This document shows, piece after piece, positions 60,407 to 63,873 of a stretch of 64,000 nt of DNA (positions are counted from its first letter, which is position 1; each line of letters begins with the position of its first letter). The stretch lies in assembly GCA_000004985.1 (NCBI GenBank), contig GG738865.1; one strand, 5' to 3'. The position numbers and the translations under genes are program-made. The notes under the pieces were generated by a model. The model had not been told where the DNA came from. It saw only the letters and a program-made list of their open reading frames with translations, and searched no databases. Source of the DNA: Naegleria gruberi. Lineage: Eukaryota.

Positions 60407-61524
60407 TTACATGACATTACACTTTTTAGGTTGCTTTTGGACTCTCTTTTTACATTCGTCAATGAATGCTACATCGTATTCCACACAACCTTGCAACAGA
60501 GCTACATTGTCAACTCCGCCAAGTCTCTGTTTTCTAATAAGTTCTTCGAAAATAAGAGTGACATTCTCTCCAAGTTTAGCACTGCTCATCACTATTGAAT
60601 AGTTCAACAATGAATATTCTGAAATAATTGAATTGAATTCAGATTTATACTTCTCAACAGTTTCTGCTCTATTTTCTTTCAATAAATCCATCTTGTTCAT
60701 TACAAACACAATTGGCATGTCATTAACTACATAATCTTTACAACGAATCAACAGGTCAACTTGATAACGAACATCTCTCAAAGAACTTTCATCATTCACT
60801 GCACAAACAATTACAAAACTTTGACCAACTCTCAGGTATTGATCTCTCATTGCAGAGAACTCCTCTGGACCAGCTATTTTCAAAACATTATTCAAATATT
60901 CTATTAAAAACTCAAAAACATACCAGTATCTAGAATATCCAATAATACAGGCTCTCCATCAACCTCAACATGTTTTCTATAAGAATCCTCAATTGTTGGA
61001 TCGTACTCTGATATAAAGACATTTTGAACGTAGTGAATTGTCAATGCAGATTTTCCTAAAATAGCTTAGTTTTAAATTCAAATAATGAAATACTAACCCA
61101 CTCCTCCTTGCCCAAGCACAACCACTTTAACTTCTTCTGATCCCTTACTCGGATCATATTTTGGTCTTTTCCACACTTTAAACTTGATGAAACTTGCCAA
61201 TAGAATTTTCCTCTTCATATCCCCTTTTTTAATCATTTGTGATTTGAGTTGTTCCAACTCCTTTTCAAATGCAGGCATTACAAAATTCTTTTCCAATACT
61301 GTCCACCAAAATGTATTGAAATAGTTCTGCATTTCATTCATACTCGAAATTCTCTTGCTGATTGATTGAAAAATTGCTGCCATTCTAATGTCAGATTTTC
61401 TACTCGCAGGATTATTCAATTCTTTATCAACTCCGAATGATAAAATATGTTGGAAAATTTCATAGGGAAGTGATGAGAATAGCGTTTGATGGTGGTGAGG
61501 CATTTTTTTTCTTTCTTTTTGCAT
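60407..61524 (-). CDS. Ras-subfamily small GTPase with a C-terminal CAAX box (CNVM) and a roughly 125-aa N-terminal extension carrying an F-box-like motif, in 3 exons.
   Basis: Model complement(join(60407..60873, 60924..61055, 61098..61524)), introns 50 and 42 nt (GTATGT..TAG and GTTAGT..TAG, both phase 1), about 341 aa. The N-terminus has [12 protein letters not shown]. The core reads [12 protein letters not shown]|[43 protein letters not shown]|[20 protein letters not shown]...VFVMNKMDL...SSAK. It is Ras-like throughout, but switch II reads DTAGPE, not DTAGQE. Confidence 0.8.
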
Positions 61525-61696
61525 GTTCTTGATTTGATGTTTGTTGTTGATTGGTAAATTTGTGTTCGGGAGGAACGATGAACTTTGTTCCTGCTTTGTA
61601 ATACTTTATGAAAACATTATTTTGATCTTATTTGCTTAATTATATCATTGGAAAAGAGTTAAGGATAATAAGGATGTTGTGGTGTGTTGTAAAGTT

Positions 61697-62758
61697 ATGT
61701 TCAAATTCTGTGGATTGCTTGATATTTTGGCGCGTAATTTTTCAAGCCTAAAAAAAATGGAACGCATTGATTTGAATCAAACTTCTTGTGCGGAGGCACA
61801 AAGTAGAAATGATGTGCAACAACAAAATAATCATCAACAGACTGCAGCAATGGATAATAATGAGAATACAACAACAATAGAAGAATCCTTTAAAATAATT
61901 TCTAGTTCCAACACTAATGTTATCATTGATAAGGATTTATTGGTTAGGCTTCATCACTTTTATACTAGTCTGGAATCAAGTACTCACATTCAACAGGAGG
62001 ATTTTAACATTCTTTTATTCGGAACAAGAAAACACACATATCAAAATCAAAATATTTATATTGAATCTTTTAAAATTATTTATGATGAAAATATATTAAT
62101 TGATTACATTTCCAAGCACAAGGATGGAAATTTACAATTGTTGGGATTTTCTATGAATTTTGACAATTTTGATTATGATTTACAGGGAAAGATAAAGAAA
62201 CAGTTTCAAAAATTCCACTATATGGTATTAAAGCACTGTATTTTACAAAGATATTCCGGAGGTAAACATAAGAATATTTTGGAAAAGTATATTGGATTGA
62301 ATATCAAGTCGTTTGTACAGAATCAAGTTTATGGAGGAGATAGTGAAGTTTTTGTTCAATTATTAGCATATTATACCAAAGTATTCTCACCATATTTGAA
62401 AAATGAATATATTGATACAATATGTGCAAATGCCTTGTTGGATCAATCAGAAAACTTTGAATGTAAAATAACATATAGACAAGATATTAATTTAACTGTA
62501 ATTGCTGGTCAATCATCACAATTTGGAAATCATTTTCCATCCATTTCAGAATCTAATAATTCTTCTGGAGTAGATGAGTGTATGAATCATGTATTTATAG
62601 AAAATAATAACATTCCTTACCTGGAAGGTTGGATTAATGATCAATTGACCAATGAAAACTCCTCTGAAATATTAAAACTCTTGAAGGAATATGAGGAATT
62701 GGAAAAATTTAACAGCTCTCTAAGGGAAGAGCTTTATTTGGTTGAACAAGAGGAATAA
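61697..62758 (+). CDS. Hypothetical protein. The start is uncertain: in-frame ATGs lie at 61697 and 61757, and the track start 61679 is GTG.
   Basis: About 340-codon ORF with N/Q-rich segments and a C-terminal coiled-coil-like acidic tail (LKLLKEYEELEKFNSSLREELYLVEQEE). I recognise no confident domain. Confidence 0.4.
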   Translation: MFKFCGLLDILARNFSSLKKMERIDLNQTSCAEAQSRNDVQQQNNHQQTAAMDNNENTTTIEESFKIISSSNTNVIIDKDLLVRLHHFYTSLESSTHIQQEDFNILLFGTRKHTYQNQNIYIESFKIIYDENILIDYISKHKDGNLQLLGFSMNFDNFDYDLQGKIKKQFQKFHYMVLKHCILQRYSGGKHKNILEKYIGLNIKSFVQNQVYGGDSEVFVQLLAYYTKVFSPYLKNEYIDTICANALLDQSENFECKITYRQDINLTVIAGQSSQFGNHFPSISESNNSSGVDECMNHVFIENNNIPYLEGWINDQLTNENSSEILKLLKEYEELEKFNSSLREELYLVEQEE

Positions 62759-62844: not shown

Positions 62845-63873
62845 TTAAACTTGTTCGTAATTTCCCTTCTTCTTTCCAAATTCTTGAGGTTCATCTTCTT
62901 CATCAAAGAATTGATTTTCATCAAAAGTATCCTCAATTTCACCAGTGAAACCAGATTCACGAACCATTGGAGCATTGTTGTTGTATCCAAGATCTTGTGA
63001 AGGTGTGACATAAACTGTGTTTGGAACAGTTTGAGCAGCAAATGAAGGTTGAATAGGTTGTTGAATTGGTTGAGTTGGTTGTTGAATAACAGCTTGTTGA
63101 CCTGATTGATTATTTTGTTGAGCTGCTTGATTAGCCTTTTCAGCTTGCTTATTGAATCTGAAAGTCAAAGCCTTCCAAATAGCAAAGTGAGCCAATAAAA
63201 AGACAGTCCAACCTCCTAAAACAATCAAAAACCATGGGAAATCGTGAACAGTGTAACAGTAAGTGACAAAAACAATAAAGTTAATAACACTGTAGAACAA
63301 GGCGTGGATATAAAAGTGATTGAAGAATTGTCTAACCTTGACAACCATACCATGAAGACAGTAGGCAAGTAATAAAACAGCAACTGGATAAACACTCCAA
63401 GGGAAGCTTGATGGTGTATGTTCATTCATGGCAATGAGTTGGAAACTTGTTGATGCGAAGAAGAGGGTGTGGAAGGAGAAGAGTCTATCGGAATAAGTAG
63501 GTGATCCTTGAATCATCAAACCACCAATAACTAACGATGAAACCCACAAAATATGTATAAACCAAGGATATCCAGTTGGTGTTGTTAAAATCCATATGCA
63601 AAAACAAATAATAGAAAGGAAAGCCATTATAAGTGAAAGTCTAACAAAAAGCTTTGGATGTTTGTGTCCTTGTAAAACATCATACTTTTGAATAACACTA
63701 TCTTCGAGTGCTGTTATTCTCTTTGAAGCTCTATCCACAATTAATCTCTTCTTATCTTCTTTAACTTCAGGAACTCCATTCAGTGAGGCCATTATTGGTG
63801 GCTGCTGTTGTGGAGGTACTTGTTGGGCCATCATTGGTGGAGGATTTGAAAAAGTTTGTTCTGATTGCATCAT
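62845..63873 (-). CDS. Hypothetical multi-pass membrane protein (about 6 predicted TM helices) with Q/P-rich termini.
   Basis: ATG at 63873 (MMQSEQTF...). The protein has a run of hydrophobic helices (LSLIMAFLSIICFCIWILT, FIHILWVSSLVIGGLMI, SVYPVAVLLLAYCLHGMV, ALFYSVINFIVFVTYCY, FLIVLGGWTVFLLAHFAIW) and an acidic C-terminus (EIEDTFDENQFFDEEDEPQEF). Confidence 0.5.
   Translation of the reverse strand: MMQSEQTFSNPPPMMAQQVPPQQQPPIMASLNGVPEVKEDKKRLIVDRASKRITALEDSVIQKYDVLQGHKHPKLFVRLSLIMAFLSIICFCIWILTTPTGYPWFIHILWVSSLVIGGLMIQGSPTYSDRLFSFHTLFFASTSFQLIAMNEHTPSSFPWSVYPVAVLLLAYCLHGMVVKVRQFFNHFYIHALFYSVINFIVFVTYCYTVHDFPWFLIVLGGWTVFLLAHFAIWKALTFRFNKQAEKANQAAQQNNQSGQQAVIQQPTQPIQQPIQPSFAAQTVPNTVYVTPSQDLGYNNNAPMVRESGFTGEIEDTFDENQFFDEEDEPQEFGKKKGNYEQV

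Follow-up and report, generated by a model that had tools for sequence, protein, structure and literature searches.

A Ras-like GTPase of Naegleria gruberi with proline at the catalytic position of switch II and a putative divergent F-box at its N-terminus

Rap-type proteins, which carry Thr61 in place of Gln61, still cycle, the catalytic residue being supplied by the GAP (RapGAP), and in Rnd and RhoH positions 12 and 59 are altered as well. For HRAS, replacement of the catalytic glutamine by proline (Q61P) lowers intrinsic GTP hydrolysis ∼8-fold, as do other substitutions of Q61 (Der et al., 1986, reviewed in PMC6813200), yet the mutant is non-transforming and behaves like the wild-type protein in transformation assays (PMC6813200); NRAS Q61P is non-melanomagenic in mice. 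Small GTPases have also been described in association with ubiquitin ligases. Rab40b–Cul5 and RhoBTB–Cul3 are documented GTPase–cullin adaptors (PMC13236570), and the Euglenozoa possess TbFRP, a FYVE–F-box–GTPase whose F-box has been linked to rapid proteolysis and for which its authors found no N. gruberi orthologue (PMC3593210). In Naegleria itself, Rab, Rho, Ran and Galpha GTPase domains carry additional fused domains, of which the F-box is the commonest (PMC8296547, Suppl. Material 4), an abundance of fusions that the authors read as pointing to 'GTPase-dependent ubiquitination'. Their text mentions one Naegleria Ras protein with a BTB domain, whilst a Ras protein with an F-box goes unmentioned; the underlying curation used SMART, Pfam and CDD (PMC8296547). 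Thus, F-box–GTPase fusions are already published for both Naegleria and the Euglenozoa, and the general design of an F-box joined to a GTPase is not new; an initial annotation of the present locus rightly described an F-box next to a Ras-type domain as not being a textbook architecture.

The window analysed here is a 64,000-nt stretch of N. gruberi DNA (contig GG738865.1, assembly GCA_000004985.1). At 60407..61524 it contains a three-exon, minus-strand gene with a 1026-nt CDS and a 341-aa product, the features of which, listed from the 5' end of the gene, are as follows:

61098..61524, minus strand: exon 1, residues 1–142 and the first base of codon 143 (from splice sites and reading frame)
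61435..61485, minus strand: F-box helix-1 motif, residues 14–30, matching positions 1–15 of the Pfam F-box-like profile (E 0.2)
61282..61485, minus strand: whole putative divergent F-box, residues 14–81, comprising helix 1, an enlarged loop and the segments at the VCKRW and LW positions
61132..61281, minus strand: conserved helical linker from the F-box-like region to the G domain, residues 82–131 (from family alignments)
60527..61131, minus strand: Ras-type G domain, residues 132–302 (the span includes both introns)
61056..61097, minus strand: intron 1, 42 nt, GT..AG, interrupting P-loop codon G143
60924..61055, minus strand: exon 2, encoding the end of the P-loop and the effector loop, up to DT
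60874..60923, minus strand: intron 2, 50 nt, GTATGT..AG, splitting codon A187 in DTAG
60407..60873, minus strand: exon 3, including the TAA stop at 60407..60409
60866..60868, minus strand: CCA codon of Pro189, the equivalent of Ras Gln61 in the HRAS alignment, kept in a second strain
60452..60526, minus strand: C-terminal helical extension, residues 303–327, conserved in the family
60410..60451, minus strand: polybasic stretch and CaaX box CNVM, a C-terminal prenylation signal

Letter for letter, the product of this spliced model agrees with an entry of Table S8 in Herman et al. (2021; PMC8296547), the manually corrected N. gruberi model 'Ras XP_002677816.1*'; in that table, neither XP_002677816.1 nor its paralogues XP_002668509.1, XP_002673033.1 and XP_002674532.1 have an extra-domain entry or a pseudogene flag. 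A literature search found XP_002677816 absent from the main text of papers. The gene model and its classification as Ras are therefore already published; what appears to be unrecorded is the cryptic F-box-type head on this Ras subfamily, together with the finding that the catalytic position is occupied by proline more often than by any other residue in this family.

The same gene is carried by a metagenome contig (L001) from another strain, which is 98.6 % identical to positions 58093..61979 of the window. In this contig a 1-nt indel in the A-run between the ATGs at 61524 and 61503 puts the first of these (MQKERKK...) out of frame, whilst the second (Met8, MPHHHQ...) remains in frame. As the start of the paralogues (MAPHE...) likewise corresponds to Met8, the true start is probably the second ATG, at 61503, giving a protein of 334 aa. 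Counted from Met8, the two strains differ by eight synonymous and three non-synonymous changes; the CDS is free of indels, and the splice sites and the proline codon are intact. Substitutions affect 3 of 92 intron nucleotides (one in intron 1, two in intron 2) and 11 of 1005 exon nucleotides. Since synonymous changes outnumber non-synonymous ones and neither indels nor splice-site losses are seen, this pattern indicates purifying selection between the strains, although on small numbers.

A Diaphanous-type formin on the plus strand (56202..60365; Drf_GBD E 3e-16, a long poly-Pro FH1 region and FH2 E 6e-83) is convergent with the Ras gene; as only 41 nt separate the two stop codons, the 3' UTRs must either overlap or be very short. 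Approximately 9 kb from the Ras gene, which itself lacks Gln61, lies an IQGAP-like protein with RasGAP (E 8e-45) and RasGAP_C domains (48914..51388, minus strand). Between these, a 966-aa ORF (51994..54894, minus strand) combines a Myosin_TH1 tail (E 5e-31) with a weak, partial protein-kinase match, a combination that would be unusual if the ORF is a single gene. On the other side are an ORF of ∼334 aa with no Pfam match (61754..62755, plus strand) and a 342-aa protein with a 2TM domain (E 1e-6; 62845..63873, minus strand). Tandem paralogues of the Ras gene are not found within the window.

The Ras core of the three-exon gene, recognized in the initial annotation, was confirmed by a match to Pfam Ras (PF00071; E 2.4e-36, residues 133–301) above the gathering threshold. 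All of the nucleotide-binding motifs are intact (G1 GQGGVGKS, G3 DTAGPEE, G4 NKMD and G5 SAK), and the CNVM CaaX box likewise stands in its place. Aligned to HRAS, switch I (YDPTIEDSY, including T163) shows no difference from HRAS residues 32–40, and switch II has two changes only, Q61P and Y64F. Hence the catalytic Gln61 is missing, with Pro189 in its place, as had been proposed; as G12 and A59 are retained, position 61 is the only one of the catalytic positions 12, 59 and 61 to be altered. The substitution at position 11 (Ras A11 to Gln), which had also been singled out, is present, but it is not a notable change, as position 11 varies freely across the family (Q, E, A, D, K, P, C or S).

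Intron 2 falls within the DTAG motif. The CCA codon lies two codons into exon 3, and being exonic it cannot be converted to a glutamine codon by any choice of acceptor or by re-splicing. The sole alternative in-frame acceptor for exon 3 adds 11 residues, and AGPEE is still read. An alternatively spliced DTAGQE, an outcome that would have undone the original claim, was thus ruled out. In paralogue P0018, the unspliced read-through stops at the point equivalent to intron 2. Judging from read-through ORFs, the switch II intron follows DT-G in N. gruberi paralogues and DTAG in the N. fowleri relative P0126; this difference could represent intron sliding or independent introns.

A CaaX box with methionine at the X position predicts farnesylation by an established rule, and the CNVM end of this protein is accordingly of the type predicted to be farnesylated. 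Preceding the polybasic stretch, the C-terminal extension (residues 303–327) follows the consensus ..LL..hIE.D.., is kept from Naegleria to Willaertia and is without a known counterpart in Ras. In the AlphaFold2 (AF2) model of paralogue P0001 it forms two helices (301–311 and 313–324), and it might pack against the N-terminal helices.

As to the consequences of Pro61, the protein had been predicted, by analogy with Ras Q61 mutants and Rnd-type proteins, to be GTPase-deficient and constitutively GTP-bound. The first half of this prediction is reasonable, as an impairment of hydrolysis can fairly be expected from the ∼8-fold slowing of HRAS Q61P. A constitutively active or GTP-bound state, by contrast, is not established: given the weak biological effects of Q61P in HRAS and NRAS, a protein with Pro61 is not necessarily 'locked on'. 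Hydrolysis might also be assisted in trans by a GAP that contributes the catalytic residue, by analogy with Rap.

The N-terminal extension had been described as F-box-like, and here the evidence differs between the single protein and its family. On its own, the window protein reaches only 11.9–13.2 bits with the Pfam F-box-like profile, against a cut-off of 24.3, and aligns over helix 1 only, with an LPxEI-type core at residues 19–30; in-silico removal of the loop between helices 1 and 2 left the Pfam F-box score at no more than 15.4 bits, still below 24.3. When nine single N-termini of the family were compared, eight matched Pfam F-box-like (E 0.007–0.2), in five cases as the top-scoring match, whilst that of P0001 gave no Pfam F-box-like match. 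The best match of P0030 was F-box-like_2 (PF13013), at 21.7 bits against a cut-off of 21.6, making it the sole family member to reach a cut-off; those of PF12937 and PF00646 were passed by no Ras-domain-bearing member in the Pfam scan. Conservation within the extension is centred on the helix-1 signature L-P-x-E-[IL]-x3-I-[LF], present at the start of the domain: L19, P20, E22, I27 and L28 are invariant in nine family members, in paralogues that are otherwise only 23–66 % identical in the N-terminal region.

At the level of profiles the resemblance finds support. Comparison of the family profile by hhalign with a set of 14 F-boxes, all Pfam-verified, gave a probability of 95.1 % (E 3e-8), and helix 1 alone gave E 4.7e-11 against verified F-boxes. 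The helix 2–3 region alone scored 10.3, within the range of its column-shuffled null (6.9 ± 1.5, maximum 11.3), and is not significant, so that the F-box signal lies essentially in helix 1. A greedy, and hence permissive, hhalign alignment covers all 49 F-box columns in the expected register, in which FQSISKRIS pairs with VCKRW, and FWW with the terminal LW. Among PDB sequences, the best match of the family profile was Legionella AnkB, a structurally solved F-box protein (E 0.036). Furthermore, searching 1.84 billion representative sequences with an HMM of the extension returned 45 matches, those outside its own family being F-box proteins only. Eight of the 45 have no Ras GTPase domain and all eight are bona fide F-box proteins: six are long multi-F-box proteins of the plant FBD/LRR type (P0146, P0151, P0153, P0155, P0160 and P0162), and the other two, P0157 and P0165, were considered as family members and rejected, as they pass Pfam F-box thresholds but show no GTPase part. 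At E ≤ 0.1, 14 of 39 profile matches were hit by Pfam F-box-like.

For the window protein, structure prediction was uninformative rather than negative. An AF2 model of the N-terminal 131 aa, built on a nine-sequence alignment, had an unusably low pLDDT of 52.9, and a Foldseek comparison of it with the PDB returned no match. The full-length AF2 model of P0001 reached pLDDT 78, with helices at 13–25, 34–47, 49–52 and 55–73, followed by linker helices at 80–92 and 96–111 (pLDDT about 84); the modelled N-terminal helices are compatible with the positions of F-box helices 2–3. Taken together, these comparisons support an F-box at the level of the family and its profile, not for the window protein by itself, and it is in this form that the original proposal stands. 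Homology of the extension to the F-box seems likely to us, and we lean, with less assurance, towards the N-terminus binding Skp1.

N. gruberi has several full-length relatives that share the extension, and others were found in N. lovaniensis, N. fowleri and Willaertia magna. All of the named matches among the 45 returned by the extension HMM come from Naegleria and Willaertia, and a word-indexed search with the N-terminus alone recovered only the exon-1 ORF of the same gene from the other strain. With regard to a lineage-specific Ras paralogue family, a question raised in the initial annotation, the gene belongs to a fast-diversifying, Ras-derived GTPase family so far limited to Naegleria and Willaertia. 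From N- to C-terminus, its members comprise an F-box-type head (consensus LPxEIxxxILxF, a variable loop, then QSIxK...FWW), the helical linker, the Ras G domain, the helical tail and a polybasic CaaX end.

Position 61 is variable within this family. In 18 aligned members it is Pro in eight and Gln in two, with Leu, His, Met, Thr, Glu, Ser or Gly in the remaining eight. The carriers of Pro61 comprise five N. gruberi proteins (the window protein included), one from N. lovaniensis and two from Willaertia, and in a crude NJ tree they are spread over at least four subclades. Additionally, six Naegleria and Willaertia members (P0139, P0148, P0150, P0163, P0164 and P0147) have lost neither the F-box-like head nor the CaaX end, whilst their P-loop or DxxG motif is degenerate, with GCGGAGVS, GDFTLKRT and ETSEHDD as examples; judged by these motifs, they are likely to be pseudo-GTPases that no longer bind or hydrolyse nucleotide. 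Because Gln61 persists in only two of 18 members and the G1 or G3 motifs of several are degenerate, and yet 17 of the 18 have a CaaX-type end, the family as a whole appears to have given up canonical catalysis while keeping its membrane anchoring.

The best explanation of these features is, in our view, that the protein is a membrane-anchored, slowly hydrolysing Ras-like module coupled to Skp1–Cul1, to which we assign a probability of roughly 0.5. What makes this the best-supported reading is the combination of an intact switch I surface, the loss of the off-switch residue and a prenylatable C-terminus; each step of the mechanism beyond the sequence features we infer. The farnesyl group and the basic patch would hold the protein on the membrane, where it would bind GTP, hydrolyse it slowly and resist RasGAP-type stimulation, whilst its G domain would present a Ras-like effector surface. 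The N-terminal F-box would dock onto Skp1–Cul1, with the G domain taking the place of the WD40 or LRR domains of ordinary F-box proteins. Within an SCF ubiquitin ligase, the protein might then be either a substrate receptor whose action depends on its nucleotide state or a subunit that targets itself, in an arrangement that would mirror RhoBTB with Cul3 and Rab40 with Cul5 and would agree with the GTPase-dependent ubiquitination suggested for Naegleria (PMC8296547). A more specific version can be offered only tentatively, and we hold it to be somewhat doubtful: that these farnesylated, hydrolysis-impaired Ras modules are vahlkampfiid-specific, GTP-state-dependent SCF substrate receptors at membranes, the Cul1 counterpart of RhoBTB–Cul3 and Rab40–Cul5, in which RBD/RA-type Ras effectors, or else regulators of Ras, would be brought in for ubiquitination through the intact effector loop and Pro61 would have been selected to uncouple the receptor from RasGAPs.

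An F-box likeness that is significant for helix 1 but not for helices 2–3, in a family no Ras-domain member of which passes the PF12937 or PF00646 cut-off, would also be expected of an ordinary cycling Ras-like switch, in which the LPxEI helix is a relic or convergent and the lineage-specific helical extension, instead of being a working F-box, serves localisation, autoinhibition or partner binding, with a GAP supplying the catalytic residue in trans. Such a switch would agree with the published curation, which gives the gene no extra domain (PMC8296547), with the wild-type-like behaviour of HRAS Q61P in transformation assays and with switches I and II that are otherwise almost identical to those of HRAS, as expected if Ras-type regulators and effectors are still used. 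We nevertheless consider it rather unlikely, as outside the family the profile finds F-box proteins only among 1.84e9 sequences, the profile–profile E-value is 3e-8, and five helix-1 residues stay invariant in otherwise strongly diverged paralogues. Moreover, the order of F-box-type head, linker and binding domain is that of canonical F-box proteins, and dozens of recognized F-box–GTPase fusions exist in Naegleria.

If the F-box does work, the GTPase could be its target: SCF would ubiquitinate the protein itself, and proteolysis would replace GTP hydrolysis as the off-switch, yielding a short-lived signalling pulse from a hydrolysis-defective Ras. Autoubiquitination is, however, common to F-box proteins and does not thereby exclude a receptor role, and the intact effector loop suggests that partners are bound; self-destruction as the main function therefore strikes us as unlikely, even though the loss of Gln61 removes the usual off-switch, the same idea has been proposed for TbFRP (PMC3593210) and an entry in the reference list of PMC13236570 reports RhoBTB2 as a Cul3 substrate. 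Finally, many members of the family have degenerate G1 or G3 motifs, and Herman et al. noted pseudogenes in expanded Naegleria GTPase clades (PMC8296547), so that the gene, as part of a birth-and-death family, might be a paralogue in decay that lacks an independent function. This is very improbable for the present gene, the ORF, splice sites and nucleotide-binding motifs of which are all intact and which has no pseudogene flag in Table S8; pseudogene status was rejected on the comparison with L001, given the excess of synonymous changes and the lack of CDS indels.

The coupling of a slowly hydrolysing Ras module to Skp1–Cul1 would, if the F-box is functional, add the Ras family proper to Rab, Rho, Ran and Galpha as SCF-wired GTPases of Naegleria, and would strengthen the case for wide GTPase-dependent ubiquitination in heterolobosean amoebae. 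Independently of this, the family is a natural experiment on Ras position 61, in which proline is commonest and the switches are otherwise almost those of human HRAS, and it could reveal the effects of Q61P on switch II and on GAP and effector recognition. Our results also point to divergent F-boxes in the N. gruberi genome that are missed by single-sequence Pfam, SMART and CDD domain tables. The value of the locus lies mainly in its being a lead for SCF–GTPase coupling and a natural Q61P Ras.

Set beside the systems introduced at the outset, the protein shares with HRAS and NRAS Q61P, Rap, Rnd and RhoH the replacement of the catalytic glutamine of switch II. It differs from the HRAS and NRAS mutants in that proline is the wild-type state in the Naegleria family, conserved across species, and from Rnd and RhoH in that G12 and A59 are kept. 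RhoBTB (Rho plus BTB, Cul3) and Rab40 (Rab plus SOCS box, Cul5) likewise join an atypical small GTPase to an adaptor module for a cullin-RING ligase and may serve as a model for a GTPase acting as substrate receptor, a resemblance that is functional only. Their BTB or SOCS module is C-terminal, whereas here a putative F-box (Cul1/Skp1) is N-terminal and the GTPase family is a different one; neither a BTB domain nor a SOCS box was matched in the window protein by Pfam at E ≤ 10. TbFRP combines a FYVE domain with a Rab18-like G domain and is not built around a CaaX end, whereas the window protein, in which Pfam matched no FYVE domain, is Ras-like and prenylatable. Closest are the F-box–GTPase fusions of Naegleria itself (PMC8296547), which come from the same organism, have the same order of F-box, linker and Ras-superfamily G domain and share a lineage-specific expansion, rapid divergence and often a CaaX end. 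In contrast to these, the G domain of the present family belongs to the Ras family proper, which is unlisted among the F-box partners (PMC8296547), its putative F-box has diverged beyond recognition by SMART, Pfam or CDD, and its catalytic glutamine has been replaced, mostly by proline.
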